Of a DNA stretch of 64,000 nucleotides, positions 50,781-63,514 are shown in pieces. Source of the stretch: a virus; IMG/VR virus record IMGVR_UViG_3300049846_002551, positions 29,937 to 93,936 of that record. One strand, written 5' to 3'. The notes below the pieces were generated by a model. It ran no database searches. It was not told where the DNA came from and saw nothing but the letters and a program-made list of their open reading frames with translations. How positions within the stretch are numbered: the first letter of the stretch is position 1; every line of letters begins with the position of its first letter. The position numbers were made by a program, and so were the translations under genes.

Positions 50781-51056
50781 GTGCGAACTGCCCATCAACC
50801 TGATGAAAGTCAGCCCCTTAACCTCAGTTCGGATGCGCTTCAATACTTGGGTGCGTTAAAAGAGTGCCATGAAGCCTTGATTGAAACGCTAGATGTCACA
50901 GATGAGATAATCAAGTTGGTAAAAGACTTTTTGGAGGGAGATGCTATAGATTCTCAGGACGTGTTGTTGTTATGCGAACGTTATGAGGTCATGTCGGCTT
51001 CCACAAGACAAAATTTTGAAATTTCAAAGTCCCCCCTTGACAAAACTACCCTTTAG
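50781..51056 (+). CDS. Hypothetical protein
   Basis: GGAGG RBS, acidic helical ORF. Confidence 0.55.
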   Translation: MRTAHQPDESQPLNLSSDALQYLGALKECHEALIETLDVTDEIIKLVKDFLEGDAIDSQDVLLLCERYEVMSASTRQNFEISKSPLDKTTL

Positions 51057-51067
51057 GGTGGTACAAT
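51037..51067 (+). promoter_or_regulatory. TTGACA-AAACTAC promoter copy 1
   Basis: TTGACA-19 nt-TACAAT with extended TG. Confidence 0.75.
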
Positions 51068-51093
51068 GATTTTGTTATCGAGTGGAAACCAAT

Positions 51094-51192
51094 AAGAGAG
51101 GCGGCGCACAGCGATAACGCTAGATTCAATGTCTGGTGGGTTTTGAGTGCTTTTCAAGTGGGATGAATAGGCTGTGCGTTGACTCTCTTTTT
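51094..51192 (+). ncRNA. Candidate small RNA (long closing stem, U-tail)
   Basis: AAGAGAG-G-CGGCGCACAGC ... GCTGTGCGTTG-A-CTCTCTT-TTT just downstream of promoter; no ORF. Confidence 0.5.
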
Positions 51193-51248
51193 GTATGGTT
51201 TGCAAAAACATGGTAAAACTGTAGGGACGTTCGAAGTAGGAGAGAATA

Positions 51249-51440
51249 ATGCAATTTTATGATGTTCGCACTCGACAACATGTTGATATTCCCGACGAAA
51301 ACTGCGAAAAGGTAGTTTTTGCTAAAGGAACCAGTAAAGAACGATATGCCTTTAAAGGGGTAACTCCGGCAGGTAACAAGGTGATGAAGTTTTGCTCGAA
51401 AACGGATTACGACGCTTCGACTTTGAAAGAAGGCGCGTAA
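51249..51440 (+). CDS. Small basic beta-sheet protein resembling CC1-type chromatin proteins
   Basis: MQFYDVRTRQHV...RYAFKG.TP.G.KV.KF pattern; AGGAG RBS. Confidence 0.55.
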   Translation: MQFYDVRTRQHVDIPDENCEKVVFAKGTSKERYAFKGVTPAGNKVMKFCSKTDYDASTLKEGA

Positions 51441-51445
51441 GTAGG

Positions 51446-51467
51446 TTTGTACATTGACAATTGAATA
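51446..51467 (+). promoter_or_regulatory. rrn boxA-like antitermination/leader motif
   Basis: TTTGTACATTGACAATTGAATA resembles boxA-containing rRNA spacer sequences; directly precedes giant ncRNA. Confidence 0.4.
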
Positions 51468-51480
51468 ACAAGTTTACGAT

Positions 51481-52398
51481 TTGGTCAGAACTAAACGCTA
51501 GTCGTTTGTAGTACGACCAAAAACACGGTGGTATAGCATCGTTAGATAGGGCATCGAGAGATGTGGAAAGGGATCAGGTTCTTCATACCCCCCGCTACTC
51601 CTTAAAAAGAGTAGTCATCTATGCAAGCTCAGTTGCTGTAAGCTTCAGGACCGAAAGGTATTGGAACTATACTGGTAATTGTGAAATCGAAACGTTTTAA
51701 GAAGCACGGGGGTGACACTATCGACTTCTTGGAGCCATCGGAGTAGCGTCTGATAAAGGTTTCATGCAAAGCAATGACAGTTAAGCGACGAAGAGTAGTG
51801 TTAGTGCTTGAGTTCAGTCGTGAATAAAAGCGTTAATGCAGGTGAGCGTGGAGAGCTACGCAGAAAGCGTAGCTGGAAACGTTAAATCAGACGAGTAACG
51901 TATAACGACCGTGAAAGTTAATAAGCGGTGTGTCGTATTTCTATCTTCAAAAGAGACTGAAGCGGCGGCGCACACACATCGTTATGAAGTTGCATATAGC
52001 TCAATGGTAGAGCAACGCCATGCTAGGGCGTAGGTTGCTGGTTCAAGTCCAGTTAAGCTACAAAAAAACGCACAAGTTGTGCGCCACATGATGACGACAA
52101 TTGGCCTCTGTCCTTAATCTTAGAGATGTAAGGAGCAGGAAGTCTCGCAAGGATAACCTGTAGTGTGACGAGGAACGACATAAACTCTTAGCGGGGTTGA
52201 ATTGCTGATAATAAGGCAAGTGGCAAGTACAGATTGCACAGTAGTCTCATGGTGACTGGGAAAGCATGTCCAGTATAAAAAATGCGGTCAGGCAGTCGGA
52301 CCATTCGCAAGGATGGTGGATAAGTTGGCAACAAGTATTGCAAATACTTGGTACTCCAATATAAAGCGACTGAGTATCAGGAGTAGTCTCGTCCTGTG
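51481..52398 (+). ncRNA. GOLLD-like giant non-coding RNA
   Basis: No credible ORF, dense hairpins; contains motifs I recall from GOLLD 3' domains (CGTATT...TCAAAAG...GAAGCG; AGTCTCGCAAGGATAA; TTAGCGGGGTT); embedded tRNA-like domain; ends approximate. Confidence 0.75.
51990..52061 (+). tRNA. Pseudo-tRNA (anticodon GCT) embedded in GOLLD-like RNA
   Basis: D arm GCTC-AATGGTA-GAGC, AC arm ACGCC-ATGCTAG-GGCGT, T arm GCTGG-TTCAAGT-CCAGT; two acceptor mismatches, no CCA, short variable loop. Confidence 0.7.
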
Positions 52399-52404
52399 AG
52401 TAAT

Positions 52405-52517
52405 ATGTATTGATGGTTAACACCGTAGCTGAAAGGTAGCGGGAATGGTGTGCGGACCTACGGAGCAATCTAGGGTTCGCATTCCTCCAGGGTGTGAATC
52501 CCAAACCATCAGTACAT
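52405..52517 (+). ncRNA. Unnamed structured RNA A
   Basis: 14-bp closing stem ATGTATTGATGGTT/AACCATCAGTACAT; internal stems; GGAAT/ATTCC possible pseudoknot; T-loop-like GGG-TGTGAAT-CCC. Confidence 0.65.
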
Positions 52518-52587
52518 TTTCAAATTTTGAATTTTCAAAGCTAATTTCTAAAAACTCGAATATGAAAATGATCGAAAATTTTTTAAG

Positions 52588-52796
52588 GTCGTGCGCGTAT
52601 ATGGGTTTTTTGGCTGAAAACGAGTTAGTCTCTGGGGTCATTTTAAGGAGTCCATAGCACCTTACTTTGGGAGATGGTGACGCGATACCCATGTAACGTC
52701 ATCTGAGGAAACCAGCCTGAATAACCAAGCTAATGAACACGAGTCCCTAGCAACGCTGGTGAAAGAGAAAACGTGTGACACTCCGGAGAGACGGAG
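52588..52796 (+). ncRNA. Unnamed structured RNA B ending in GTGACA-stem-GAGAGA module
   Basis: TATATGGGT/ACCCATGTA and other stems; CTCCG-GAGAGA-CGGAG followed by ATTTT. Confidence 0.5.
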
Positions 52797-52800
52797 ATTT

Positions 52801-52959
52801 TGTTACTCCATATGTGAATTACCATTTGGTTACTCGAAAGGGTAAGTGTGGTTCCAGTACAACAGACCAAGAAGATGCTGGCGGAAGCGACGATTATGTA
52901 ATTGCGGTGACCCGAACCAAAAGCGTCGTGAACAGGTGACATCCCCGGAAAGACGGGGG
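52801..52959 (+). ncRNA. Unnamed structured RNA C ending in GTGACA-stem-GAAAGA module
   Basis: TGTTACT/GGTGACA closing stem; TTACTC-GAAA-GGGTAA hairpin; TCCCCG-GAAAGA-CGGGGG. Confidence 0.5.
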
Positions 52960-52963
52960 CCGA

Positions 52964-53178
52964 TTTAGTTATAGGGTCGTAATCCGACATTGCTGTTGCT
53001 CGGCGGCAAAATCATGAGCGAACTAAAGAAATGGTGAAACACGCAGTAGGTAGTCGCTACTGATATGATGTTAGCAATAACATTGAAAATCCCCCAGCCG
53101 GAGGGGTCAGACTTAAAAAGGAATAGCGCAATTCTTCCCTAACCCGGACTCTAACCTGAGATGACTGGCAAAGTGCCA
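52964..53178 (+). ncRNA. Unnamed structured RNA D
   Basis: TTTAGTT/AACTAAA, GTCG/CGAC, TTGCTGT/GCGGCAA, CAGTAG/CTACTG, TGTTA-GCAA-TAACA stems; no credible ORF. Confidence 0.45.
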
Positions 53179-53250
53179 ATCCCCGGAACAAGCGGTGCAA
53201 CGAAGAGATAGCTACTCGGATACGTCGAAAGTTCGTACTTGCCGGGGATT
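53178..53250 (+). ncRNA. Unnamed 73-nt structured RNA E abutting tRNA-Glu
   Basis: AATCCCCGG/CCGGGGATT 9-bp closing stem plus CAAG/CTTG. Confidence 0.5.
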
Positions 53251-53253
53251 TTT

Positions 53254-53328
53254 GGCCTCTTGGTCTATCGGTTATGATCTCCGGCTTTCTACCGGAAGAG
53301 ACGGGTTCGACTCCCGTAGAGGCTACCA
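53254..53328 (+). tRNA. tRNA-Glu(TTC)
   Basis: GGCCTCT/AGAGGCT acceptor, TCCGG-CTTTCTA-CCGGA anticodon arm, GGTTCGACTCC T arm, encoded CCA. Confidence 0.93.
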
Positions 53329-53355
53329 AAACTTTACTGGTGGTAGAATTCTTGT

Positions 53356-53916
53356 ATGGCTAATGATCAAAAACCGTGGCGTAACAAGATTCCCATTCCT
53401 TACAAAGGCATTAACACTAGATATTCCCCTGCCCGTGTTAGTACAATGAAAGCCGTATTCGGAAGTCCAGTTGGTAAATTGACCAATGACTGTAACGAAG
53501 ATGCTATATCTCCAAAGATTGCGAAACGGATTAAGACCAGAAAAATCGGCAAGTGGAAGTTTCGAGGTCTTGATCTGTTTCTTGATGTAATTGAACAAGT
53601 TTTTGCCGAGTATGCGGTGAAATATCCGGATGCCTACAACGATCTTCATCAAGAAGGCATGCTTTGTGTTCGTTTAGTTCGCGGCAGTAAGTCGCAACCA
53701 AGCAATCATTCTTGGGGTACGGCAGTTGACTTAGGGTTTGGAGATGCCGTTGACAGTCGAGGCGATGGCTTTTGTTTTAAAGGGATGCTCGACCTGTATG
53801 CTATCGCTAAAAAATATAAGCTTTTTTGGGGTGCATCCTTTAGCACCGAAGATGCAATGCATTTTGAGGCTTCAGAGCAGTTGGTTCGGGAGTGGTCGGA
53901 AACAGGCTTAATTTAA
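53356..53916 (+). CDS. M15-family peptidoglycan peptidase (endolysin)
   Basis: R...SNHSWGTAVD...WG..F...DAMHFE. Confidence 0.85.
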   Translation: MANDQKPWRNKIPIPYKGINTRYSPARVSTMKAVFGSPVGKLTNDCNEDAISPKIAKRIKTRKIGKWKFRGLDLFLDVIEQVFAEYAVKYPDAYNDLHQEGMLCVRLVRGSKSQPSNHSWGTAVDLGFGDAVDSRGDGFCFKGMLDLYAIAKKYKLFWGASFSTEDAMHFEASEQLVREWSETGLI

Positions 53917-53920
53917 GTAT

Positions 53921-53951
53921 TTGACAAAACTACTCTTAATGGTGGTATAGT
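53921..53951 (+). promoter_or_regulatory. TTGACA-AAACTAC promoter copy 2
   Basis: TTGACA-19 nt-TATAGT. Confidence 0.75.
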
Positions 53952-53971
53952 ACTTGTGTTGAGGTGATGTA

Positions 53972-54133
53972 ATGACAGTCCTGATTTTGTTGGTTTTGAT
54001 TCTGTTGGTTAAGAAACTGATTTATGCGGAGTCTATCACGCGGGGCATGTATATCCCGCGTGAAGCTACTTCCACTTATATTGATCCTGAAATTGTAAAA
54101 GCAGAAAAAGCTTTACGTAAACGTTTAGGGTGA
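53972..54133 (+). CDS. Small membrane-anchored protein (53 aa)
   Basis: GAGGTG RBS; MTVLILLVLILLVKKLIYAES...RKRLG*; below ORF-track length cutoff. Confidence 0.6.
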   Translation: MTVLILLVLILLVKKLIYAESITRGMYIPREATSTYIDPEIVKAEKALRKRLG

Positions 54134-54354
54134 TGAAGTCGGAAGAGCAACAACAAATCATTGTATTTGTTGTTTCTTTGCGAAATGTGGTTGAGATGAC
54201 TCAAGCGGAGTTTGCTGACACGTTAGGCGTTAGTCGGTCTTACATTTCTGCGCTGGAAAGCGGGTTTAGACCGATTAACGTTTCATTTCTAATTGCAGTC
54301 AGAAAGCGGTTTGGCATTTCCATTGATGCGCTTTTTGACGGATTGAATTTTTAA
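54133..54354 (+). CDS. XRE/Cro-type HTH regulator
   Basis: LR....MTQAEFADTLGVSRSYISALESG. Confidence 0.88.
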   Translation: MKSEEQQQIIVFVVSLRNVVEMTQAEFADTLGVSRSYISALESGFRPINVSFLIAVRKRFGISIDALFDGLNF

Positions 54355-54374
54355 ACATTTTTCTGATATATCGG

Positions 54375-54404
54375 TTGACAAAACTACTTTGTACCAGGTA
54401 TAAT
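54375..54404 (+). promoter_or_regulatory. TTGACA-AAACTAC promoter copy 3
   Basis: TTGACA-18 nt-TATAAT. Confidence 0.8.
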
Positions 54405-54446
54405 TGCGTTAGGGGTATAAACCCACGACTGGAGGAATTGTAACAA

Positions 54447-55859
54447 ATGAAAAGCGAATTGATTTATGACCGAAAATCGGATGGAATCCAATCATCGGAT
54501 TACTTAGGAGATGCGATGATTGATCCGATGGACATCTATGGTTTTCCAAACTTGAAAAAAGGCGATGATCCGGTCATTAAGGATCATCCGGAATTTCCGA
54601 ATCCAAGAACAGGTCCGCTTGATCGCACTCTCATTGATGAGATTAAAGAAGCAGGTCAACTGATTGAGCCTATTGCAATTTATTTTCATGAAGAAAAAGG
54701 AAAAGAAGTTGCCGTTCTAGTCAACGGAAAAACACGGTTGACAGCGGTTGCGGAAGCATGGGCCGAGGATGGAACAACAGATAAGTTTCGTTTGATACCT
54801 TATGTTGTTGTGACTGGTACACCTATGGAGATTCAATTTTTACAAGCGAAGATGAATCTCGAAGATTCAAGACGACCTTTATCGAATGTGGAAACTGCGG
54901 ACTTCTTATCAAAAATGGAAGAAGCGTATGGTTTGACCGAAGAACAACAGTTGGAATATTTGAAGAAGCCTGTTAATCAAGGAACGATTCGTTGGCTTCG
55001 AGAATCGAAAGCTGTTGCTGGAGATAGCATCGTGCGCGAAGCCTTAGAGGAAGGTGTGATCGATGCCACTACTGCAAAATCTTTGACTAAAATTGAAGAT
55101 GAACAAGAAAAGAAAGATGCGCTGAAGCAGGTTCAAGATAGTAAGTCGCAAGGCAAAACTGAGCGTCAAGCACGTCAAACCATCAAAGCGAAAACTAAAA
55201 CTGCAAAAGGCAGTAAAACGGGTGTATTGCGAACAGGAAATCGAACGACTCTTGGGTGGAAAGCAGGGTTGGAGCTTCTTCAAGAATATTACCCATACGC
55301 TAAAGTTGCATTTCAAAATAATCTCGATGTAGATAAGATCGATTGGAAGTCACGAGATGAACGTGAAGCTTTTCTCTTTGATCAAGAGGTTATGGCGCGA
55401 TTTGATATCGTGGTAAAATTTATGAAGTTGGACACGCTGACTATGCTTCAATTGTGCTCAACGATTGAAGAAATATTTGGGCCAGAAGAGTGCAAGGCGA
55501 TGAATGTTATCGACTGGATGCCAACACCAACTAAACGTGATATTGACGAAGGAGTTTCTGTGGGAACTAAGACACCAAAAACGAAACAAGACGCGGTAAA
55601 AAAACCCGTAACTAAAACAACGAAAACAAAACCAAAGGTTAAGAAGGAACCAAAGGTTAAGAAGGAACCAAAGGTTAAGAAGGAACCAAAGGTTAAGAAG
55701 GAACCAAAGGTTAAGAAGGAACCAAAGGTTAAGAAGGAACCAAAGGTTAAGAAGGAACCAAAGGTTAAGAAAATTGCGACTAAAACAACGACTAAGGCTC
55801 CAAAAAAGGAGAGTACGCCTAAACCGACAAAGAAAGCGCGACCACGTTCGCCTCTCTAG
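54447..55859 (+). CDS. ParB/Srx-domain protein with histone-H1-like Lys-rich tail
   Basis: NPR...LIDEIKEAGQLIEPI...LVNGKTRLTA; C-terminal PKVKKE repeats; GGAGG RBS. Confidence 0.75.
   Translation: MKSELIYDRKSDGIQSSDYLGDAMIDPMDIYGFPNLKKGDDPVIKDHPEFPNPRTGPLDRTLIDEIKEAGQLIEPIAIYFHEEKGKEVAVLVNGKTRLTAVAEAWAEDGTTDKFRLIPYVVVTGTPMEIQFLQAKMNLEDSRRPLSNVETADFLSKMEEAYGLTEEQQLEYLKKPVNQGTIRWLRESKAVAGDSIVREALEEGVIDATTAKSLTKIEDEQEKKDALKQVQDSKSQGKTERQARQTIKAKTKTAKGSKTGVLRTGNRTTLGWKAGLELLQEYYPYAKVAFQNNLDVDKIDWKSRDEREAFLFDQEVMARFDIVVKFMKLDTLTMLQLCSTIEEIFGPEECKAMNVIDWMPTPTKRDIDEGVSVGTKTPKTKQDAVKKPVTKTTKTKPKVKKEPKVKKEPKVKKEPKVKKEPKVKKEPKVKKEPKVKKEPKVKKIATKTTTKAPKKESTPKPTKKARPRSPL
55630..55771 (+). repeat. 18-bp perfect tandem repeat (CCAAAGGTTAAGAAGGAA x7.8) encoding PKVKKE
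   Basis: Seven identical units plus a partial eighth. Confidence 0.97.
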
Positions 55860-55879
55860 ATTTAAAATGTTACAATTCC

Positions 55880-55911
55880 AGGGATCGAGCAATTTTGCTC
55901 GGTCCCTTTTT
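55880..55911 (+). terminator. Intrinsic terminator
   Basis: AGGGATCGAGC-AATTTT-GCTCGGTCCCT-TTTT. Confidence 0.8.
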
Positions 55912-55930
55912 AATGCGGTATAGTTTGAGA

Positions 55931-56242
55931 ATGGCAGAGTTTTCAATGGACGGATTCCAGTCGCTGGAGTTAGGGATGTCTACTAAGTTTCGTCAAATGT
56001 GGTTTAAGCTTAAAAATCCCGATTCGAAAGAAGGAACTTTGCGCGTGGAATTTCATAACCGCAAACGTCCACAGAATCGTGGAGCTATTTACGATTACAA
56101 CGCCACAGAAGCCTTTGTAAAAGCGTTTGTGGAGCATGCTCAAAGAGTAGGCATCGAGTCAGTCGGTAGTATGTTTCACAAAGAGGTTATTGCAAAACCG
56201 GAAGAGCATCCGTTCACTTTAGTAGCGAAGGCGGTTGAATGA
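55931..56242 (+). CDS. KTSC-domain protein
   Basis: TLRVEF...GAIYDY...SVGSMFHKEV; leaderless ATG 6 nt after TATAGT. Confidence 0.6.
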   Translation: MAEFSMDGFQSLELGMSTKFRQMWFKLKNPDSKEGTLRVEFHNRKRPQNRGAIYDYNATEAFVKAFVEHAQRVGIESVGSMFHKEVIAKPEEHPFTLVAKAVE

Positions 56243-56487
56243 TTCTGGTTGAAATTCAGCCTAATGAAGAAAAACCTTTTTTTGCGATGGACTTTAACGG
56301 TACAGCGCGTTTTGATCTAATCACGATTGTGGATACGTTAGGAAACGCTGTGGCTACACTTGAGCGCGATAAAAGCGGTGTGCTGGTAGCGAAGATTATC
56401 GGGAAAGCCTATCTTGCTGAAAAGCAAGTTTCGGCTACGAAATCCCAAAAAAACAAAAAAGACCCCGATTGCGGTTGTAAGGGTTGA
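56239..56487 (+). CDS. Hypothetical protein
   Basis: ATGA-coupled ORF. Confidence 0.5.
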   Translation: MILVEIQPNEEKPFFAMDFNGTARFDLITIVDTLGNAVATLERDKSGVLVAKIIGKAYLAEKQVSATKSQKNKKDPDCGCKG

Positions 56488-56513
56488 CAAAACTACTCTA
56501 TGTATGCTATAAT
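56484..56513 (+). promoter_or_regulatory. TTGACA-AAACTAC promoter copy 4
   Basis: TTGACA-18 nt-TATAAT with extended TG. Confidence 0.8.
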
Positions 56514-56528
56514 AGCAATAGACAAGTT

Positions 56529-56843
56529 ATGTGTTATGATACGTATTCGTTTCGATTCACCTGTGCCAACGATTCACAGGCTAAGGCCGTTATCTATTTA
56601 GTGAAGGCCGACTTCCGGACGCCACAAGATTGTTTTTATGAGGGTGATGTGGTTCATTGGGAGACGCTTGAGTATAAGCGTAAAACCTGGGGTCGTGTAG
56701 CGGGTCCTATGGATTTCTGTGTTTGTGCTTCCACTTATGACTACTATGTAAATTTAGCGGAAGCTTGTAAAAAGGAGTTCATGTCGACTGTAGTCGAACA
56801 GCGAAGCCAGGATTTACTGGGCGGAACGGACTCAACCTCTTGA
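56529..56843 (+). CDS. Hypothetical protein
   Basis: ORF downstream of promoter 4; start moved to first ATG after -10. Confidence 0.5.
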   Translation: MCYDTYSFRFTCANDSQAKAVIYLVKADFRTPQDCFYEGDVVHWETLEYKRKTWGRVAGPMDFCVCASTYDYYVNLAEACKKEFMSTVVEQRSQDLLGGTDSTS

Positions 56844-56869
56844 CAAAACTACTTCGAGTGTGGTATAGT
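56840..56869 (+). promoter_or_regulatory. TTGACA-AAACTAC promoter copy 5
   Basis: TTGACA-18 nt-TATAGT; ATG 6 nt later. Confidence 0.8.
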
Positions 56870-56875
56870 TGACTT

Positions 56876-57775
56876 ATGACTGGACGAAGAATGGTTCACG
56901 CGCACCGTATGGTGCAATACTACATGAAGCAACCGATTCCGGACCGTGTTTTTGTCTCAAATCCTGATGGGAAAGGACGGGAATACATGCCGCTCTATGA
57001 TAAGGTTGTAGGCGTTAGTTCGAATCTCATGTCAAAAGTTGAATCTTTTCCTGTTTACTACTGGTCCGAAGAATCTCTGATTCAAGGTTCGGTTTGGAAT
57101 AGTGGAGTAGAAGCGTCCGAAGTGTATAAACGTATGGCACGAACAATCACTTCTCCGGGAGCTATCCATTTCTTTGATGTTCTTCAATCTGTGCATAACT
57201 CTGAGCTAGGTGTTATGAATTGCGTCGGGATGATTAGGTATGAAGCTCAATTGCTTACTATGCTTTATGTGTCAAAGGATTTCAATTGGGATAACTTATC
57301 ACACGGTATTGAAAACTACAACATCTACTTTTTGAGAGAAGATCAGTTTTCAAAGTTCTATTTCACTTGGGCGACGATGCTCGAAGCGTATGCAAAGACT
57401 CCGTTAGAGTGTGATACTAAGAAATTCTTGCTTACTCCTGCACGAGCAAAAGGTATTGATAACAAGACGCAAAAAAGCTACCGTAGAAACCCGGTTAACG
57501 TAGTATGCTTACGTAAACTTGTGTATGATAAAGAGGCACTTAGAGAGAAAGCGGCTTATGTGTTGCGCGAGGTTGGAAGTGGAAACACATTGCAAGTTCA
57601 ATTTGACGTAACAGGTCATTATCGACAACAATGGTATCCGTCTGAAGGTAAACATCGCACTATTTGGATTGAGTCTTACACGAAGGGGAAGGATAAGCCA
57701 CGAGTAATTCGACCAACGGTACATAAAGTAGTTGAACGTTCAAACATTGCCAAAACTACTTCTGGGACGGTATAA
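56876..57775 (+). CDS. Hypothetical phage protein
   Basis: C-terminal VTGHYRQQWYPS...HRTIWI..Y.KG motif recurrent in uncharacterised phage proteins. Confidence 0.6.
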   Translation: MTGRRMVHAHRMVQYYMKQPIPDRVFVSNPDGKGREYMPLYDKVVGVSSNLMSKVESFPVYYWSEESLIQGSVWNSGVEASEVYKRMARTITSPGAIHFFDVLQSVHNSELGVMNCVGMIRYEAQLLTMLYVSKDFNWDNLSHGIENYNIYFLREDQFSKFYFTWATMLEAYAKTPLECDTKKFLLTPARAKGIDNKTQKSYRRNPVNVVCLRKLVYDKEALREKAAYVLREVGSGNTLQVQFDVTGHYRQQWYPSEGKHRTIWIESYTKGKDKPRVIRPTVHKVVERSNIAKTTSGTV

Positions 57776-57776
57776 T
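57747..57776 (+). promoter_or_regulatory. TTGCCA-AAACTAC promoter copy 6
   Basis: TTGCCA-18 nt-TATAAT. Confidence 0.75.
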
Positions 57777-57784
57777 TAGTAAAG

Positions 57785-58135
57785 ATGCCACAGACAAAGT
57801 ATGGATACGATTTTTATCGCGATCACTTGATTCCTGCAACGGTGACTTTGAAGCGTGATTTAGCGATAATATCAACTGAGACTGCATGCGTTAAGAAGGT
57901 TAATTATCAACGGGAAAAACGTTTGATAGCATATGAGACTATGGAGTATCATGCGCTAATTGATGAAGCGGAGCGGACTGTAAGGCTGTTTGTTCCCATT
58001 GACGGTTTTATTGAAGAAGTTTCCATTCCGTTGCGATACGTGAAATCTAGAATTGATCGAACTGAACAGCCTATTGATTATCGTAAATGGGGCAACACTC
58101 GTAAGGTGTCATACAGTATCACGGAGATGTCATGA
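57785..58135 (+). CDS. Hypothetical protein
   Basis: ORF after promoter 6. Confidence 0.55.
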   Translation: MPQTKYGYDFYRDHLIPATVTLKRDLAIISTETACVKKVNYQREKRLIAYETMEYHALIDEAERTVRLFVPIDGFIEEVSIPLRYVKSRIDRTEQPIDYRKWGNTRKVSYSITEMS

Positions 58136-58464
58136 ACGTTACTGCTGATTTGATACTGGTTAGCTTTGGTGTCATCGTAACCTATTTAGTGGTGCGATCA
58201 CAGATTTTTCAAAATACCAGGGATTGGGTGGATGAAAAGTTCGCAGTTCCGGCTTACAAACTAGGAAAACCGATTCCAAAGTGGGTTCGAGTTTTGAAGT
58301 GTGACACTTGTTTCAGCTTCTATGCCACGTTACTGAGCCTGATCGTGTTTAAGGCGATGTGGAATTCGGTTATAAACGACGAGACGGTGCAGATTGCCGG
58401 GTACCAGGTCTTGCTTTTCACGTTTATTTGGCTACAGACCATTGCGGTACTGAGGTGCATCTAG
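58132..58464 (+). CDS. Membrane protein with C..C motif (DUF1360-like)
   Basis: Three hydrophobic segments; IFQNTR...VLKCDTCFSFY. Confidence 0.5.
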   Translation: MNVTADLILVSFGVIVTYLVVRSQIFQNTRDWVDEKFAVPAYKLGKPIPKWVRVLKCDTCFSFYATLLSLIVFKAMWNSVINDETVQIAGYQVLLFTFIWLQTIAVLRCI

Positions 58465-58466
58465 AG

Positions 58467-58652
58467 ATGAAAAGGTTAACGGAATGGATTTTGTTTATTG
58501 TTGCAGGTGTCGCCGCTTGTTTTATCTACGACCGGGCATCTTTGATAATTCAAACATTTAGTGGACGTTTTGGGATGTTTGTGCTAATTTTAGTTTTGCG
58601 CGGATTTATTACAGCTTTTTGGGAGGATCAATTTCAAAAGAACAATGGATAG
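58467..58652 (+). CDS. Small two-helix membrane protein
   Basis: GAGGTG RBS, two hydrophobic stretches. Confidence 0.5.
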   Translation: MKRLTEWILFIVAGVAACFIYDRASLIIQTFSGRFGMFVLILVLRGFITAFWEDQFQKNNG

Positions 58653-58944
58653 TCGAGAATTATTACCAATTGAACTGCCATTTAATGTTCGGCAAGCTAA
58701 TGCTGAAACTTTAGAGTTTTTGAAAAAGCTATCGGATTTAGGGGTAGAAGCCATCGTGATTCATTGTGATAAGCAATGGCAACTAGACGTTACTCTTGAG
58801 ACGCAGAGTTTCCGTACATCTGTTAGCTTTACACCAACGATAACTATCAATGAAGCCATTTTGTGTATGACGGCATTGGATCGTCAAATACAACATCAAT
58901 TAGAGTCAAAAGGAGATCATCACATTGAGACAAGTGAAGATTAA
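58645..58944 (+). CDS. Hypothetical protein
   Basis: Coupled ORF. Confidence 0.5.
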   Translation: MDSRELLPIELPFNVRQANAETLEFLKKLSDLGVEAIVIHCDKQWQLDVTLETQSFRTSVSFTPTITINEAILCMTALDRQIQHQLESKGDHHIETSED

Positions 58945-59299
58945 AACTAATGTACAAATGTTTCTTTCTAAGTTTTCTATTAAGAATGAAACATGGCAAC
59001 CACATCCGGTCTATAAGGAATTTTATGGTTCCGATAAAGGCCGCATTGCATCTGTACACCACAATCGAGCGCGATTGCTTAAAATTGGCGCGAAGGTGGA
59101 ATTAACTCGTGGTACGTATGGAGTTAACTACCAACGTAAGCAGTTTCTGCCACATCGATTTATTTGGGAGTGCTTTTACGGAGTAATTAAGGATACTAAG
59201 CAGATTGTATTCAAAGATGGTGATCGCACCAATTTGAAGTTAAGCAATCTTACGCTTATGACTCCAGCCCAGCGAATCGAATACACGCAAGAAGATTAA
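58925..59299 (+). CDS. NUMOD4/HNH endonuclease-like protein, probably degenerate
   Basis: WQPHP.Y..FYGSDKGRI...HRFIWECF...KDGDRTN..LSNL; expected catalytic His not seen. Confidence 0.65.
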   Translation: MRQVKIKTNVQMFLSKFSIKNETWQPHPVYKEFYGSDKGRIASVHHNRARLLKIGAKVELTRGTYGVNYQRKQFLPHRFIWECFYGVIKDTKQIVFKDGDRTNLKLSNLTLMTPAQRIEYTQED

Positions 59300-59300
59300 G

Positions 59301-59768
59301 ATGGTTGAAATCATCGGAGACTTCTGGAAAGAAGCACAAACTGGGAAATATCAAGTCATCGGTTGTACCACAAATGGTGAAGTCAAAACGAATGGGCGTC
59401 TAGTCATGGGCGCAGGGATTGCGCTTGAGTTCGCAGATCGATATCCGTGGTTACCTGAAATGTTGGGGATGCGCATGACTCAAAAAGGTACCAGCACTTC
59501 ACTCATAAAAGAGGTGGTGCCGTATATCCTGACATTTCAAACGAAACATCATTGGAAACAACCATCGAGATACAAATATATAGTTGATTCAGCAATTCGA
59601 ACAAAGATGCTATTAGAAGAAGAGGATAGCAAAGATTGGAAAATTTTGCTTCCTAGGCCCGGTTGTGGGTTAGGGGGTTTATCTTGGGAAGATGTGAAAC
59701 TGATTTTATCGAGGCATTTTGATAATCGGTTTCATATCATCAGTAGAGAGGGGGAACTATCTTGTTAA
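59301..59768 (+). CDS. Macro domain (ADP-ribose binding/hydrolase) protein
   Basis: TTN...VMGAGIA..F..RYP...FQTK.HW...LPRPGCGLGGLSW. Confidence 0.85.
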   Translation: MVEIIGDFWKEAQTGKYQVIGCTTNGEVKTNGRLVMGAGIALEFADRYPWLPEMLGMRMTQKGTSTSLIKEVVPYILTFQTKHHWKQPSRYKYIVDSAIRTKMLLEEEDSKDWKILLPRPGCGLGGLSWEDVKLILSRHFDNRFHIISREGELSC

Positions 59769-59992
59769 AAACTTGGTTGAAAGTGTTTTTCAAATTGGAC
59801 GGAAAACGTCGTTGCGTTTCTCGTTGGTTGGACTGTGAATTGTACACTTTGTATGAATATCGAGGAAGTTCAGGGGTTCGCTATCAATGGGAAAACGATG
59901 CTGGAACGGAAATAGGTCCATGTTATTCCGCAATCGAAATGGCAGAAGTTCATTTTGGGGGGAGTGGGTTCCGTGCAGATCGCAAAAATTAA
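59762..59992 (+). CDS. Hypothetical protein
   Basis: Coupled ORF with TTG start. Confidence 0.4.
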   Translation: MLKTWLKVFFKLDGKRRCVSRWLDCELYTLYEYRGSSGVRYQWENDAGTEIGPCYSAIEMAEVHFGGSGFRADRKN

Positions 59993-60755
59993 TGACGCCG
60001 TAATCGGAAAAAGTGCAATGATTGTTGGGCTAGACAACCCGATTCTAAATCTGGTTGGTCAACACATGGTAGATACAGGTCAAATGCACGAACAGAAGTT
60101 TCTGCACTGGTTTCGAAATAAAGTACGGCAGGAGTGCGATAATCAACAAGGCGTTCTTTTTGACATTGGAGCCAATATTGGAACGTTCAGCGTTTTTATG
60201 TGTCATGCTTTTCCGTATATCGAGATTTATGCGTTCGAACCGATTAAGGAATTGTTTGAAATTTTAACTGCAAATATTCGAACGTTGAATCTTATGTATC
60301 CGAATTGCCGTATTACGGCATTTAATAATGCGATTGGAAATGTGAATGAAACTTTAGCGATTGTGCAAGTTCACGGGAACCAAGCTCAGAGCCATATTCT
60401 ACCTGCGGGTACTAATCCGGAGAGTTTGATATATCCGCATTCTATTACTACGTGTGCGATGTTGCGGCTTGATGAAGTTGTATCAAAAATTGATTTAGAT
60501 CACAAACGTGTCTATGTTAAAATTGATGTAGAAGGGTTTGAAGCGTTTGTAATTCACGGGATGCCGTCGCTTTTGCTTAACTATAAACCTGTGTTGTTGA
60601 TAGAAAACAATTCTATTGGTGATGTTGAAGTGTGTTTTCGTTTGCTGACGGAATTAAAGTTGGATGATTCGGAATATCGCGCATATCGAATTACAAACGT
60701 GATTCGCGTGGATGACAACAGCGAAAATTATATGGTTGTGTATGAAGCAATTTAG
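59955..60755 (+). CDS. FkbM-family methyltransferase
   Basis: FDIGANIG, AFEP, KIDVEGFE, P.LLIE; exact start uncertain. Confidence 0.88.
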   Translation: MGGVGSVQIAKINDAVIGKSAMIVGLDNPILNLVGQHMVDTGQMHEQKFLHWFRNKVRQECDNQQGVLFDIGANIGTFSVFMCHAFPYIEIYAFEPIKELFEILTANIRTLNLMYPNCRITAFNNAIGNVNETLAIVQVHGNQAQSHILPAGTNPESLIYPHSITTCAMLRLDEVVSKIDLDHKRVYVKIDVEGFEAFVIHGMPSLLLNYKPVLLIENNSIGDVEVCFRLLTELKLDDSEYRAYRITNVIRVDDNSENYMVVYEAI

Positions 60756-61709
60756 CTACTTCGCCATTTCTTGCAAAATCACTGTTCGCATTGATTGAAC
60801 AGGCCAACAAGTGTACACATTGTTTCCGCCAGATGCGGCGTAACCCGAATCACTCCAAAGTGGCGCGGTTCCGTTCAAATTCTTCCAATACCATGCAAGG
60901 CTTGGGTCAATGGGTGTATGAAGCAATGCTCTTGTTACGTTTGCGTTTCGAATCATAGTGAAAATGTTACGTAACGATGCAACAGGATTACTTACTGTTT
61001 TTCGAACGCCGAATTCTAAAACGGTATCGGTGATTGATCCGTACATGCTGGTAACTCGTGGACCATTGCCTTCATCGTAAACAAAACATCCGTTACCAAT
61101 GATTGATGTTCCAAGAATCAGTTCAGCCGCTTGTTTAAACTCTACAAACGGATTACCTGGTGCAATTGGGCCGAGCCTTTCAATTTTAGCCTTTCCTGCT
61201 GGAGTCAATCTTGCCCAATTCATTGGAACGGAAAGATTCGTCCATGCATCGGTATGGAAGGCCATTAGGTCAACTCCAATTGCGCCTTTAAACGAGATTC
61301 CTGTAAACGTCGATTTAGTTTTAGTACAATCTTGTAGTAGCCAATCCCATCCGTTTTTATGCTTTGTGCGGATAATCGCTGAAATCAAATCCTTTCGAGC
61401 CATGACAGCATAGTTGTCTCTGTCGCTTAAATATTGACTCCAAATTGAAGAACTTACTGCGTTTTCTACTCCTACATTACTATCCACAATAGGATGAATG
61501 ACTTGAACTCCGTGCGCGTTGCACCAACGATAGAGTCGTTTTTGATAGTCTAAGCCCTGCAATTGAGGAAACCAATCGAATTCGTCGTCCCCCACGGCAT
61601 AATAGATAGCGCGTCCTTTAGCGGTGTAAAGTGCTCCCATCTGTGCTTCGAAAAGCGCATCATCTCGGTCAAGCATCGTGGTTCGAAGGTTAAAGCCCCA
61701 GTTAGTCAT
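60756..61709 (-). CDS. Hypothetical protein, only credible minus-strand gene
   Basis: 317-aa ORF filling a gap with no long + strand ORF; own -10 (TATGAT) 8 nt upstream of ATG. Confidence 0.7.
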   Translation of the reverse strand: MTNWGFNLRTTMLDRDDALFEAQMGALYTAKGRAIYYAVGDDEFDWFPQLQGLDYQKRLYRWCNAHGVQVIHPIVDSNVGVENAVSSSIWSQYLSDRDNYAVMARKDLISAIIRTKHKNGWDWLLQDCTKTKSTFTGISFKGAIGVDLMAFHTDAWTNLSVPMNWARLTPAGKAKIERLGPIAPGNPFVEFKQAAELILGTSIIGNGCFVYDEGNGPRVTSMYGSITDTVLEFGVRKTVSNPVASLRNIFTMIRNANVTRALLHTPIDPSLAWYWKNLNGTAPLWSDSGYAASGGNNVYTCWPVQSMRTVILQEMAK

Positions 61710-61752
61710 GGTATAGAATCATACCGTATGGATTAAAAAATCAAAACCTATC

Positions 61753-61782
61753 TTGACAAAACTACTCCGATGCAGGTATGAT
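61753..61782 (+). promoter_or_regulatory. TTGACA-AAACTAC promoter copy 7
   Basis: TTGACA-18 nt-TATGAT; ATG 6 nt later. Confidence 0.8.
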
Positions 61783-61788
61783 GATTAC

Positions 61789-62076
61789 ATGTTGATTGAA
61801 AACTTAAAGAAGTGGTGGATTTTATGGATTTGGGTTATGCTTCTTTTTTTAGTGCTATTTTTCGGGTTGCGTGGTTCAACGGTCCCAAAATTCGAATACA
61901 AGATTACGGCTCCTGAAGATTACGAATTGGAAATGAAATGCAACGAGATGGGGGCAGATGGTTGGGAGATGGTTACAGCCCGTCGAGCTACGCATGAAGA
62001 ACCGTACATTCCTGGTGTGCAATCACGCCATGACGAGGCTAGCTACGAAATTATTTGGAAACGCGAAGTACGCTGA
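61789..62076 (+). CDS. Membrane-anchored DUF4177-like protein
   Basis: TM helix then FEYKI...NEMGADGWEMV...IIWKRE. Confidence 0.7.
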   Translation: MLIENLKKWWILWIWVMLLFLVLFFGLRGSTVPKFEYKITAPEDYELEMKCNEMGADGWEMVTARRATHEEPYIPGVQSRHDEASYEIIWKREVR

Positions 62077-62136
62077 TTTTGTGTTTGTTAACGTGTATAA
62101 TTAACTTGAAACATCAGTTTTATAAGGAGGATACCG

Positions 62137-62676
62137 ATGAAGATTCGATGTGTTGGATTGTGTTGCTGGTTGCTGTTGTTTGCAGTTAGTTATTCTGTAA
62201 ACTTATACCAACATCAAAAACTTTCAAAACCATTAGCTACTCGTGGTGGTTTACAGCGAAAATCAAGTTTTCCTGCTCATTTGTCTGTGTATACGGAACG
62301 AGAAAACGGGAAAAGTACAAAATCAGGAATTCCGTTTGATGATGACAAGCGCACGGTTGCTGTACACCTTTCACGGATCAGTTGGCTATATAAATATGTT
62401 GCAGTTGAATATCAAGGGCATATTTATGGATTAACCCCTGAAGATTCGCTTCAAGTAACCGACACTTTTGCCAGTAGATATTACGAACGCAAGTTGGGTT
62501 CGTTATACATTTTACGGTTGGATTGTTCGAAAGCGGCAAAGCGTTTAATTACAGGCAACTCTTCGGGAGTGACATTAAATGTACGTGTTTGGTTGCTTCC
62601 ATCTAAACCGAAGAAAAACAAGTTAGTGAGTCTGACAGAGATTCACGCCACGGAGCTAGATATCGGGAGACTGTAA
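62137..62676 (+). CDS. Secreted or anchored RlpA-like (DPBB) protein, possible lytic transglycosylase
   Basis: Signal/TM N-terminus; SVY...G.STKSGIPFD....VA...VTD...LDCS..A. Confidence 0.55.
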   Translation: MKIRCVGLCCWLLLFAVSYSVNLYQHQKLSKPLATRGGLQRKSSFPAHLSVYTERENGKSTKSGIPFDDDKRTVAVHLSRISWLYKYVAVEYQGHIYGLTPEDSLQVTDTFASRYYERKLGSLYILRLDCSKAAKRLITGNSSGVTLNVRVWLLPSKPKKNKLVSLTEIHATELDIGRL

Positions 62677-62752
62677 CTCCACATACAGCGGTATCGAACG
62701 AACAGTCCCTGAAACCTGTTCGTGCTATGGGAGACTGTTAGGAGAGACTAAC
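62677..62752 (+). ncRNA. Structured element ending in GAGACT-stem-GAGAGA module
   Basis: CTCC-CATA/TATGGGAG and CGAACAG/CTGTTCG stems; GTTAG-GAGAGA-CTAAC. Confidence 0.45.
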
Positions 62753-62754
62753 AC

Positions 62755-62791: not shown

Positions 62792-63514
62792 ATGCTCGAC
62801 TTCAAAATCACGCTTAGATGTGCAGACGCGATAGAGTTTCTACAGTCGTTAAAGAAAAATTCAGTGGATATGGTGCTAACTGACCCCCCGTATTGGACTT
62901 TAGACAAACATCGAAATGTGGGAACTACGACTCGTTTAGGTGGTAATGCCAATAAAGCGAAACAAACAGGGTGGTTCAAAACAATTAATCAGGAATACAT
63001 GATGCAAATGCTCGATGAAATTTATCGTGTCCTAAAACCGAATTGTCATGCGTATGTAATGTCCGATGGACAGACATTACGCCACATTTTGAATCATGCT
63101 GATAACAGTAAAACCCCTTTTAAGAATTACAAGCCAATTGTTTGGGATAAAGTGAACCAAGGAATGGGTTACCATTATCGATGCCGACATGAGTTTTTCG
63201 TAATGCTTGATAAGGGTAAAAATCGAAGGTTGAACAGTTTGTCTGTTCCAGATGTTTGGGCTGTTCCGATGATTAAAGGCGGATATTCAACTGAGAAGCC
63301 CGTTTCACTCATGGAGATTCCAATCCTAAACAGCACAGAACCATTAGAACTAGTAGTGGACCCATTTATGGGTGGTGGAAGTGTAGCGATGGCATGCGCC
63401 AAAAATTGCAGGAATTTTTTGGGTTGTGATGTTAGTATGGAAGCAGTGGAGCTTACGCGAAATCGATTGGTTGCGGATTACCGAAAACATGTGGTCGGGT
63501 CACTAGGAGTTTAA
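62792..63514 (+). CDS. N6-adenine/N4-cytosine DNA methyltransferase (beta class)
   Basis: TDPPY precedes TEKP and DPFMGGGS. Confidence 0.9.
   Translation: MLDFKITLRCADAIEFLQSLKKNSVDMVLTDPPYWTLDKHRNVGTTTRLGGNANKAKQTGWFKTINQEYMMQMLDEIYRVLKPNCHAYVMSDGQTLRHILNHADNSKTPFKNYKPIVWDKVNQGMGYHYRCRHEFFVMLDKGKNRRLNSLSVPDVWAVPMIKGGYSTEKPVSLMEIPILNSTEPLELVVDPFMGGGSVAMACAKNCRNFLGCDVSMEAVELTRNRLVADYRKHVVGSLGV

Follow-up and report, generated by a model that had tools for sequence, protein, structure and literature searches.

The window, the whole 64,000-nt stretch of viral DNA that was analysed, carries three copies of a short hairpin motif, as seen in the list below. Copies 1 and 2 sit in a 1.9-kb untranslated RNA island between a GOLLD RNA and tRNA-Glu, where they separate structured segments within one transcription unit. 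No strong intrinsic terminator was found downstream of them within that unit. Copy 3 lies 53 nt past the stop codon of the ORF at 62137-62676. Its end stands 1 nt ahead of TTGACA (62755-60), the -35 element of the promoter that follows, and it occupies the very end of its transcription unit. The initial annotation had put the three hairpins at 52775-52796, 52936-52959 and 62731-62752, and they were found there when the sequence was re-read. The copies were assigned from the sequence and with two models, R1 and R2. R2 is a covariance model trained on 46 copies, all from other phages, without any sequence of the window.

51036..53916, + strand: transcription unit holding copies 1 and 2
51036, + strand: promoter CTTGACAAAACTAC, start of this unit
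After the promoter at 51036, same unit, + strand: 63-aa ORF
51923-52395, + strand: GOLLD RNA 3' domain (Rfam match)
51989-52062, + strand: tRNA-like gene embedded in the GOLLD 3' domain
Between the GOLLD 3' domain and tRNA-Glu, + strand: further structured segments
52734..52797, + strand: copy 1, complete module (sequence; R1 and R2; family rule [AG]AC + 3 bp ... 3 bp + GUGACA)
52734-52738, + strand: TGAAC of copy 1
52737-52741, + strand: 5' strand of helix P2 of copy 1, AC + ACG
52742-52771, + strand: 30-nt insert of copy 1
52772-52776, + strand: 3' strand of P2 of copy 1, CGT + GU
52775-52780, + strand: GUGACA of copy 1
52781-85 and 52792-96, + strand: hairpin P3 of copy 1, CTCCG/CGGAG, with loop GAGAGA at 52786-91 and A at 52797
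52928..52959, + strand: copy 2 (sequence; R2)
52928-33, + strand: GTGAAC of copy 2, followed by AG and by GUGACA at 52936-41
52942-47 and 52954-59, + strand: P3 of copy 2, TCCCCG/CGGGGG, outer pair U.G, with loop GAAAGA at 52948-53
53254-53328, + strand: tRNA-Glu
53356-53916, + strand: M15 peptidase gene
53920: next promoter after the peptidase gene
62665..62738, + strand: setting of copy 3 (sequence; fold)
62729..62753, + strand: copy 3, divergent variant (sequence; R2)
62731-36, + strand: GAGACU of copy 3
62737-41 and 62748-52, + strand: P3 of copy 3, GTTAG/CTAAC, with loop GAGAGA at 62742-47 and A at 62753

All three sites have G-W-G-A-C-W directly 5' of the stem (5 bp, 6 bp in some copies), a G-C closing pair and a GARAGA hexaloop. 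The P2 rule holds in copy 1 (GAAC ACG ... CGT GUGACA); canonical P2 is missing locally in copies 2 and 3. The minimum-energy fold of copy 2 predicts that 52801-52807 (UGUUACU) pairs with 52935-52941, enclosing ~125 nt, with a z-score of only -0.3, and the thermodynamic folds of the window units were unremarkable (z -0.3 to -1.05). T62736-A62753 is a possible sixth stem pair in copy 3. Around this copy, the 10-nt direct repeat GGGAGACTGT occurs at 62665-74, overlapping the stop codon, and at 62729-38, overlapping GAGACU and the start of P3, and a complement to both repeats, ACAGTCCC, lies at 62702-09. Such repeat/complement pairing was not a family-level feature when 205 homologues were compared with shuffles.

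The full motif, G[AT]GAC[AT] with a stem of at least 5 bp and G-GARAGA-C, occurs three times on the + strand and never on the - strand of the whole 93,936-bp genome. Dinucleotide shuffles of the genome gave 0.0 full motifs per genome (0/400) and 0.09 per genome of the hairpin alone (400 shuffles). Only four GARAGA-loop hairpins with a stem of at least 4 bp exist in the genome, all on the + strand. The three sites were also the top three R2 matches genome-wide, with 38.7, 32.9 and 20.3 bits for copies 1, 2 and 3 (E 3e-8, 1e-6 and 2e-3). The next match scored 8 bits, and no further copy was found by the R2 search of the whole genome. Copy 1 scored 41 bits under R1. Copy 3 was the weakest R2 match of the three, and each of its deviations (GAGACA, GTGACT and inner-stem U-A/A-U pairs) was also seen in extra copies of other phages. 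Since none of the 400 shuffles held the full motif and a model trained elsewhere ranked these sites as its top three, they did not arise by chance. It is highly probable that they are members of a real, conserved RNA family.

Comparison across this family revealed a fold of ~45 nt at minimum with ~15 near-invariant unpaired nucleotides. P3 is a 5-bp hairpin with an invariant closing G-C and a GARAGA loop, and it directly follows the GUGACA junction. In P3, 98.8% and 98.2% of cells were paired and 72 and 49 double changes were counted; with the partner slid as a control, ~30-44% were paired. Extra copies show that the inner pairs covary, too (CCGG/CCGG, CUG/CAG), and the G18-C27 closing pair was invariant in 46/46 rows of alignment A4. 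The fully co-varying stems with a kept closing G-C and hexaloop, reported earlier from the three sites, were thus borne out by a family in which P3 is 98% paired. G.U outnumbers A.C 19 to 5 in the stems and 23/23 neighbouring tRNA genes are co-oriented and, therefore, the RNA strand is the strand read here.

The GUGACA junction is near-invariant. Its G-U alone pairs (with A-C upstream, at the foot of P2), leaving GACA unpaired. The module ends 3' with A, then Y, then a U-rich, G-poor tail that is single-stranded in character, with U at +3 to +6 after the stem in only 36-41% across the family. RNase E prefers to cleave at RN|WUU, which the tail resembles. An intrinsic terminator was rejected, as only copy 1 has ATTTTGTT after the hairpin, copies 2 and 3 do not, and the stem is just 5 bp.

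P2 consists of 5 bp, A-C-N-N-N with N'-N'-N'-G-U, around a variable insert of 7 to >100 nt. Purines close its base, often with GA facing GA, and a mismatch usually closes its top. An upstream [A/G]AC plus 3 bp pairing with the 3 nt before GUGACA was found in 112/205 cases, compared to 36.96 +/- 5.74 (maximum 56) in a shuffle control of the same 205 cases. The partner was searched for in these counts and, thus, the evidence for P2 is the shuffle control, not the pairing itself. The P2 region was too variable for MAFFT alignment, so P2 rests on counts and not on a P2+P3 covariance model, and ~45% of the family is without P2 within 110 nt. The initial annotation had proposed that the GAC segment pairs with or near the 5' start of its element. 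This did not hold as a family feature, since upstream complementarity to GUGACA did not exceed the shuffled level among 205 homologues. Neither GUGACA(+4) nor the loop and 3' strand paired with upstream sequence above shuffled controls in this set, and the lack of an enriched alternative pairing argues against a riboswitch- or attenuator-type structure.

The base of P2 resembles a kink-turn in 36/112 copies: there the GA in GAAC can stand opposite the GA in GUGA beneath a Watson-Crick helix, an arrangement known from the non-canonical stem of a kink-turn. It differs in that a separate P3 hairpin after a CA linker replaces the continuous C helix. A kink-turn was rejected because the non-bulged strand enters a separate hairpin and because two thirds of the copies have NAAC or NGAC, so that the tandem G.A is not universal.

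Contigs with an 18-base pattern numbered at least 113 for viruses and at least 120 for bacterial genomes, giving at least 233 loci. Ralstonia phage GP4, Planktothrix phage Pag-Yong1 and Rhodobacter phage RcCWillis are examples of cultured carriers. The bacterial genome matches span >15 phyla in prophage-like contexts, with Gram-positive and Gram-negative hosts, and carriers include phages of cyanobacteria, planctomycetes and spirochaetes. Several copies in tandem are common, with a spacing in arrays of 47-420 nt. The flanks are unrelated (~72 flank clusters among 100 sequences), as are the downstream genes. These settings and the covarying stems give good support to the earlier idea of a portable module on otherwise different RNAs for a ~22-nt core. 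That it serves as a 3'-end signal (processing, exonuclease blocking or antitermination), as was also suggested, may be so.

R2 had no matches in T4, T5, KVP40, HK022, P22 or HK97, and its sole match in lambda, 10.7 bits at 9203-9235, is not a nut site. Matches in Bxz1 were rejected as spurious since they lay within coding sequence and had the wrong loop. The exact pattern is absent from phage P1; a 12-bit variant there, GTGTGACA-GCCGG-GAAGAGT-CCGGC, in the unannotated trnI-ban spacer, was excluded as a member. No close relatives of this phage were found via the 470-aa neighbouring protein, and 15 loci found through an RNR-like protein (~50% identity) had neither the motif nor GOLLD. When the DNA of the RNA island was compared with cultured phages, the tRNA-like part alone matched. 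Natural variants of the stretch were not found, as two DNA runs gave identical contigs only.

In Rfam 15 (4227 models, among them GOLLD, ROOL, ribozymes and riboswitches), nothing matched the three sites or the motif copies of 26 further loci, whether by gathering score or by E<=10. A literature search by core sequence and keywords returned nothing relevant; large automatic catalogues of candidate viral RNAs were not covered by sequence (PMC10690425). From these comparisons, the motif appears new relative to the databases and literature searched, where it is uncatalogued and no named RNA family matches, and it may stand unnamed in the automatic catalogues. GOLLD and ROOL, large ornate RNAs found near tRNA genes of phages and prophages, share its genomic niche, and the GOLLD 3' domain lies 380 nt upstream in the window. 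However, the motif is outside the GOLLD match, its minimum is ~45 nt compared to 400-800 nt for GOLLD/ROOL, and neither was found in the 26 other loci (0/26, Rfam search). T4 species 1 and 2 (rnaC and rnaD) are small structured RNAs with no assigned function that are co-transcribed with tRNAs and bounded by processing sites. They resemble the motif as structured RNA in a phage tRNA cluster, but R2 has no match in T4, and the motif, unlike them, also occurs far from tRNA genes and before protein genes. The ncRNA arrays of UG27 reverse transcriptases are variable prophage units that keep their structure and the short motifs AUCN7UANAG and UUYA, next to a UG27 reverse transcriptase and two accessory ORFs (bioRxiv 10.64898/2026.09.22.753630). 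Our conserved elements AAC, GUGACA and GARAGA differ from these. A UG27 array was rejected, as the genome has no RVT_1 match or accessory ORFs and shows no enrichment of the UG27 pattern, which does not occur in the RNA island.

Within the family, 23/102 copies were within 500 nt of a tRNA gene, and all 23 were on the same strand. In four loci the hairpin ends 4-6 nt before the tRNA 5' end. The remaining ~78% of copies are not near tRNA genes and are wedged between protein genes, where many hairpins end 19-27 nt before the start codons of unrelated genes. Neighbours include the anti-defence genes Acb2/Tad1, Tad2 and Lar, and the prophage contexts, with CI-like repressors and O/P-like replication genes, are early operons. 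No conserved partner protein was found, as no family occurred within 4 kb in more than 8 of ~100 loci. Comparative support was therefore absent for the LuxR, CC1-like and KTSC proteins that had been suggested as partners.

We propose, at a probability of roughly 0.4, that the motif works in cis as a portable RNA module for boundaries, processing or end protection. It would act on the RNA strand, and its compact fold would either be read by a component common to all bacteria, such as a processing nuclease or RNA polymerase, or act by itself. Occurrence in >15 phyla with both Gram types and the lack of a conserved neighbouring protein point to such a universal partner or to autonomy. The module would fix or protect RNA ends where units meet, whether these are ncRNA segments, tRNAs or gene cassettes. 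Copies 1 and 2 would punctuate the RNA island, and copy 3 would close a transcription unit ending at the next promoter. This role is suggested by the hairpin ends near tRNA 5' ends and start codons, the tandem arrays, the promoter abutting copy 3, and the position of copies 1 and 2 between segments. Against it, simple end protection would not require an invariant loop and junction, the folds of the window units are unremarkable, and copies 2 and 3 lack canonical P2. A single nuclease partner is also not obvious, since RNase E is missing from many motif-carrying Bacillota. The positions suit the 3' end of an upstream unit and the 5' leader of a downstream unit alike, and the fixed distance to a downstream start codon or tRNA suits a 5' leader equally well. 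Orientation statistics based on ORFs could not split these two roles, being too noisy in high-GC loci.

Another possible explanation, which we consider unlikely, is a processive antitermination or anti-Rho element acting on RNA polymerase in cis, like the HK022 put RNAs, so that transcription would cross long untranslated tRNA/ncRNA islands and early operons. HK022 put and lambda/P22 nut boxB are, like the motif, short cis-acting phage RNA signals in few copies per genome, with a 5-bp hairpin, a purine-rich loop and an adjoining conserved linear element in early operons of temperate phages. The motif's two adjacent hairpins, its purine-rich loop and its early-operon contexts agree with this. 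RNA polymerase is universally conserved, which would fit >15 phyla and no partner gene, and the peptidase gene is reached only through the 1.9 kb of untranslated RNA holding copies 1 and 2. However, the GARAGA hexaloop is near-invariant over these phyla, whereas boxB co-varies with the N protein of each phage, and the motif, in contrast to put and boxB, is often in tandem and next to tRNA genes. The R2 results in HK022, P22 and lambda speak against put/nut homology. In addition, copy 3 is at the very end of its unit, and the unit of copies 1 and 2 has no strong intrinsic terminator downstream of them.

It is also doubtful that phages of nearly all bacterial phyla share a new functional RNA class with the motif as its conserved core, either a self-cleaving ribozyme or aptamer, or a universal handle by which the variable P2 inserts (guides or decoys) would be shown to a conserved cellular machine. 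If this were true, the tandem arrays in tRNA clusters would be programmable RNA arrays and not passive punctuation.

A scaffold of free small RNAs, cut from tRNA-type precursors and acting in trans, seems rather improbable. Such RNAs would bind a host factor, a defence protein or a small signalling molecule as decoy, sponge or aptamer, or would be a handle that presents the P2 insert. Units bracketed by tRNAs in tRNA clusters would be freed by RNase P and RNase Z, tandem units that join a conserved core to a highly variable insert are reminiscent of arrays of guides or decoys, strongly conserved unpaired purines are typical of aptamers, and anti-defence genes are among the neighbours. Yet the ~78% of copies between protein genes have no evident release route, a known partner protein is absent, and switch-type alternative pairing shows no enrichment.

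It is quite improbable that the motif is a new ribozyme which would cleave itself and so divide polycistronic phage RNA at the borders of its units. In favour of it are a small fold with near-invariant unpaired nucleotides that does not depend on host phylum, and a location between such units in the accessory regions of phages, which are also home to hammerhead, twister, pistol and hatchet ribozymes. P2 is flanked by GA...GA like hammerhead stem II, but the hammerhead core (CUGANGA...GAAA) is absent and no Rfam ribozyme model matched, even below threshold.

A DNA-level element, that is, a sigma-70-type promoter or a single-stranded-DNA hairpin for recombination or transposition, is very improbable: GTGACA is one mismatch from TTGACA and resembles a -35 hexamer, the motif is ~20 nt upstream of start codons, and one record carries a predicted promoter annotation over it, but stem covariation has no promoter role, G.U exceeds A.C, the expected -10 positions are not TATAAT-like (second-position A in only 18-37%), and neither a recombinase nor a transposase is a recurrent neighbour (4 kb around the motif, ~100 loci).

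For the window, these data show that the 1.9-kb RNA island is modular. The wide conservation without a partner gene suggests autonomous activity or contact with a universal host machine, and either would be new phage RNA biology. The motif could possibly serve as a compact, host-independent tool, such as an insulator, processing site, stabiliser or antiterminator. Some of the spacers that lack annotation, both in the tRNA clusters of phages and between accessory gene cassettes (homing endonucleases and anti-defence genes, for example), would be accounted for by the motif as well.

Three copies of the motif, a P2 helix followed by a GUGACA junction and a P3 hairpin in which a G-C pair closes a GARAGA loop, were examined in the window:

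52734-52797, + strand: copy 1
52928-52959, + strand: copy 2
62729-62753, + strand: copy 3

The three GARAGA hairpin strings reported by the initial annotation were present where it had placed them. Throughout the 93,936-bp virus record, only four GARAGA-loop hairpins with a stem of at least 4 bp were found, all on the + strand, which carries nearly all of the genes. When the full motif was defined as G[AT]GAC[AT], a stem of at least 5 bp and a G-C pair closing GARAGA, it occurred three times on the + strand of the record and not at all on the - strand. The initial annotation had staked its proposal on the pattern being rarer in shuffled sequence, and this held: the full motif was absent from 400 dinucleotide-preserving genome shuffles, and the GARAGA hairpin by itself averaged 0.09 occurrences in each shuffled genome. 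The triple occurrence in this genome is genuine and chance is excluded. R2, a covariance model built from 46 copies in other phages with no window sequence included, ranked copies 1, 2 and 3 as its top three matches in both the window and the whole genome (38.7, 32.9 and 20.3 bits), with the next-best match in the genome at 8 bits.

The P3 hairpin was analyzed in 96 distinct pattern-defined copies, where 98.8% of cells at the two free outer pairs were paired, with 72 double changes. Sliding the 3' partner as a control dropped pairing to 21-44%. Divergent extra copies in the same loci, found with the covariance model, showed that the inner pairs covary as well (GCCGG/CCGGC, CCUG/CAGG, CCAG/CUGG) and that GAGACA, GUGACU, AUGACA and CUGACA are tolerated in place of GUGACA, while the closing G-C pair and GARAGA were invariant even there. 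Among 384 outer-pair cells from 192 unique copies, there were 19 G.U vs 5 A.C and, therefore, the RNA is the strand read here. P3 is followed by A in 64% of copies, then by a G-poor, U-enriched tail. Upstream complementarity to GUGACA or the loop was not above chance, indicating that GACA and GARAGA are kept for tertiary or intermolecular contacts and not for an alternative helix.

P2 was recognized from the three bases 5' of GUGACA, which pair with the three after an upstream AAC/GAC in 112 of 205 unique copies, compared to 37 +/- 5.7 (maximum 56) in 200 trials with shuffled upstream sequence. The upstream A-C adds pairs with the G-U of GUGACA, making P2 a 5-bp helix. In 36 of the 112 P2 copies the upstream word is GAAC, thus placing GA opposite the GA of GUGA. 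The helix extends past the three variable pairs by a fourth in only 25% of copies; A.A, G.A and G.G are common at that position. The length of the P2 insert varies between 7 and more than 100 nt, and the smallest complete units, at the compared loci L101, L064, L068 and L093, span 47-78 nt, with a 47-nt one at L101:1165-1212. Together, these comparisons show that the motif folds compactly into two helices at the RNA level, in a strand-specific manner, and that its unpaired purines are invariant.

Copy 1 follows the consensus: it carries GAAC, its P2 has a 3-bp core, and the insert is 30 nt long. Copy 2 has no local P2 because its GUGAAC sits only 2 bases 5' of GUGACA; its minimum-energy fold pairs 52801-52807 with 52935-52941, and the stability of this fold is not unusual. 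Copy 3, which has GAGACU, an A/U-rich stem and no canonical P2, is the weakest of the three, and each of its deviations was seen in independent copies. The following features surround it:

62665-62674 and 62729-62738: 10-nt direct repeat GGGAGACTGT; the first copy overlaps the stop codon of ORF 62137-62676
62702-62709: ACAGTCCC, between the two copies of the repeat

The second GGGAGACTGT copy overlaps GAGACU and the start of P3, and in folds ACAGUCCC at 62702-62709 is able to pair with either repeat copy. The repeat and its complementary segment may form an alternative structure coupled to translation or be the footprint of an insertion.

Copies 1 and 2 lie within one transcription unit, whereas copy 3 closes another, starting at 61752, and abuts the -35 element of the next promoter. 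The relevant features are:

from 51036: unit with the GOLLD 3' domain and its nested tRNA-like gene, further structured RNA, tRNA-Glu and an M15 peptidase gene; contains copies 1 and 2
51923-52395: 3' domain of GOLLD, a large phage RNA (120.6 bits, E 2e-32, below the Rfam gathering score of 150)
51989-52062: tRNA-like gene of 74 nt, anticodon GCT, lacking a long variable arm, nested in the GOLLD variable region
51036, 53920, 54374, 56483, 56839, 57746, 61752, 62754: promoter family (C)TTGACAAAACTAC, 18-19-bp spacer

The eight promoters have CTTGACAAAACTAC in common, and the family gave 9 matches at up to 2 mismatches vs 0.6 expected. Since the predicted start of the 62755 promoter is within a few bases of the ATG at 62802, the mRNA of the methyltransferase gene may lack a leader. 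The source of the phage is a freshwater sediment metagenome, in which a single contig joins 53949 to 62754 and omits 8.8 kb. The joint falls at two promoter-repeat copies: either it is an artefact of the assembly, or a deletion between the two copies gave rise to a variant.

Next, IMG/VR was scanned with the pattern GTGACA-N(2-5)-CCGGARAGACGG, which matched at least 113 contigs vs about 14 expected by chance (a rough estimate); nearly all matches listed had the same 2-nt spacing. The same pattern matched at least 120 contigs in GTDB, taken at one genome per species. Carriers among the GTDB matches listed were Pseudomonadota (all classes), Bacillota, Actinomycetota, Bacteroidota, Cyanobacteria, Planctomycetota, Verrucomicrobiota, Spirochaetota, Acidobacteriota, Myxococcota, Chloroflexota, Gemmatimonadota, Armatimonadota and others. 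In a sample of these loci, neighboring ORFs matched PHROG families typical of prophage early/replication regions, namely CI-like repressors, O-like and P-like replication proteins, methyltransferases and one invertase. Cultured carriers include Ralstonia phages (GP4 group), Planktothrix phage Pag-Yong1, Rhodobacter phage RcCWillis, Erwinia phage phiEt88, Bacteroides phage BS-TP2, Mannheimia phage 587AP2, Rhizobium/Sinorhizobium phages such as Sinorhizobium phage phiM9, and Stenotrophomonas phages, and in almost all of them the motif site is unannotated. The motif thus occurs beyond the window phage. Core flanks are unrelated (about 72 clusters among 100 sequences), and the motif is portable between unrelated contexts.

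Across loci, the motif is located at junctions between units. Among 102 unique viral copies, 23 have a tRNA gene within 500 nt, encoded on the strand of the motif in every case, and at four loci the hairpin ends 4-6 nt 5' of the mature tRNA 5' end. Viral and bacterial loci often hold several copies in tandem at a spacing of 47-420 nt; the maximum is four, at locus L233. Many copies end 19-27 nt upstream of a same-strand start codon. In two cultured phages the motif has these positions:

L130:1501-1527: motif in Ralstonia phage GP4, ending 22 nt before an HNH endonuclease gene
L132:1501-1528: motif in Planktothrix phage Pag-Yong1, ending 22 nt before an HNH endonuclease gene

Both motifs follow 200-700 nt of unannotated sequence, and the Pag-Yong1 gene is annotated 'Cas9/Csn1 family' (201 aa). 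The downstream genes are mutually unrelated; homing endonucleases (HNH, AP2, His-Me) are over-represented (about 5 of 49, plus those of GP4 and Pag-Yong1), and others encode Acb2/Tad1, Tad2, Lar, single-strand-binding proteins and a B-family polymerase. Of the protein families encoded within 4 kb, none was shared by more than 8 of about 100 loci. In one group of viral contigs (L046, also L016, L025 and L122) the motif is in a divergent promoter region; in L046 it lies at 68-93, and a P1-type immunity module (533-583, 665-748) with c4-a1b1 targets and a C4 antisense RNA (46 bits) follows about 450 nt downstream. A distantly related viral contig, reached via an RNR-like protein, carries a manA RNA (L007:1689-1957, 70 bits).

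No Rfam 15 family matched the motif in the window and 26 other loci at E up to 10, and no description was found in Rfam or the searchable literature. The family may already be in PMC10690425, without a name, as one of its roughly 10,000 automatic candidates. Phage P1 (NC_005856) has only a weak variant (12 bits), in its trnI-ban spacer:

71009-71294 (L133:1341-1626): unannotated 286-nt spacer with GAAC-CAGG...CCTGG and GTGTGACA-GCCGG-GAAGAGT-CCGGC, the latter with a 7-nt loop

By its sequence, this element looks like a distant variant of the motif. A UG27 array was rejected because the genome lacks a reverse transcriptase and the two sets of conserved motifs are different. The 5-bp stem, with a U tract only at copy 1, does not make a standard intrinsic terminator, nor does the motif qualify as a canonical k-turn.

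We favor, with a probability of roughly 0.4, a boundary module acting in cis to define or protect RNA ends, which would arise by host-nuclease processing or by protection of the 3' or 5' terminus. Such a role fits the copies next to tRNA genes, the way tandem copies punctuate the 1.9-kb untranslated stretch between GOLLD and tRNA-Glu, and the position of copy 3 at a transcription-unit end. A put-like antitermination or anti-Rho action on RNA polymerase is a doubtful alternative. R2 found no match in lambda, P22, HK022, HK97, T4, T5 or KVP40, and those in Bxz1 were spurious; the motif is therefore unrelated to nut, put and the stable RNAs of T4. We consider a released trans-acting scaffold, decoy or aptamer somewhat less probable still, and a new kind of self-cleaving ribozyme improbable. 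A DNA-level signal is very improbable, and its promoter version conflicts with the covarying stem and with the absence of a -10 element. Because the motif does not change from one phylum to another and lacks a partner gene, we infer that it is read by a universal bacterial component or is self-acting.
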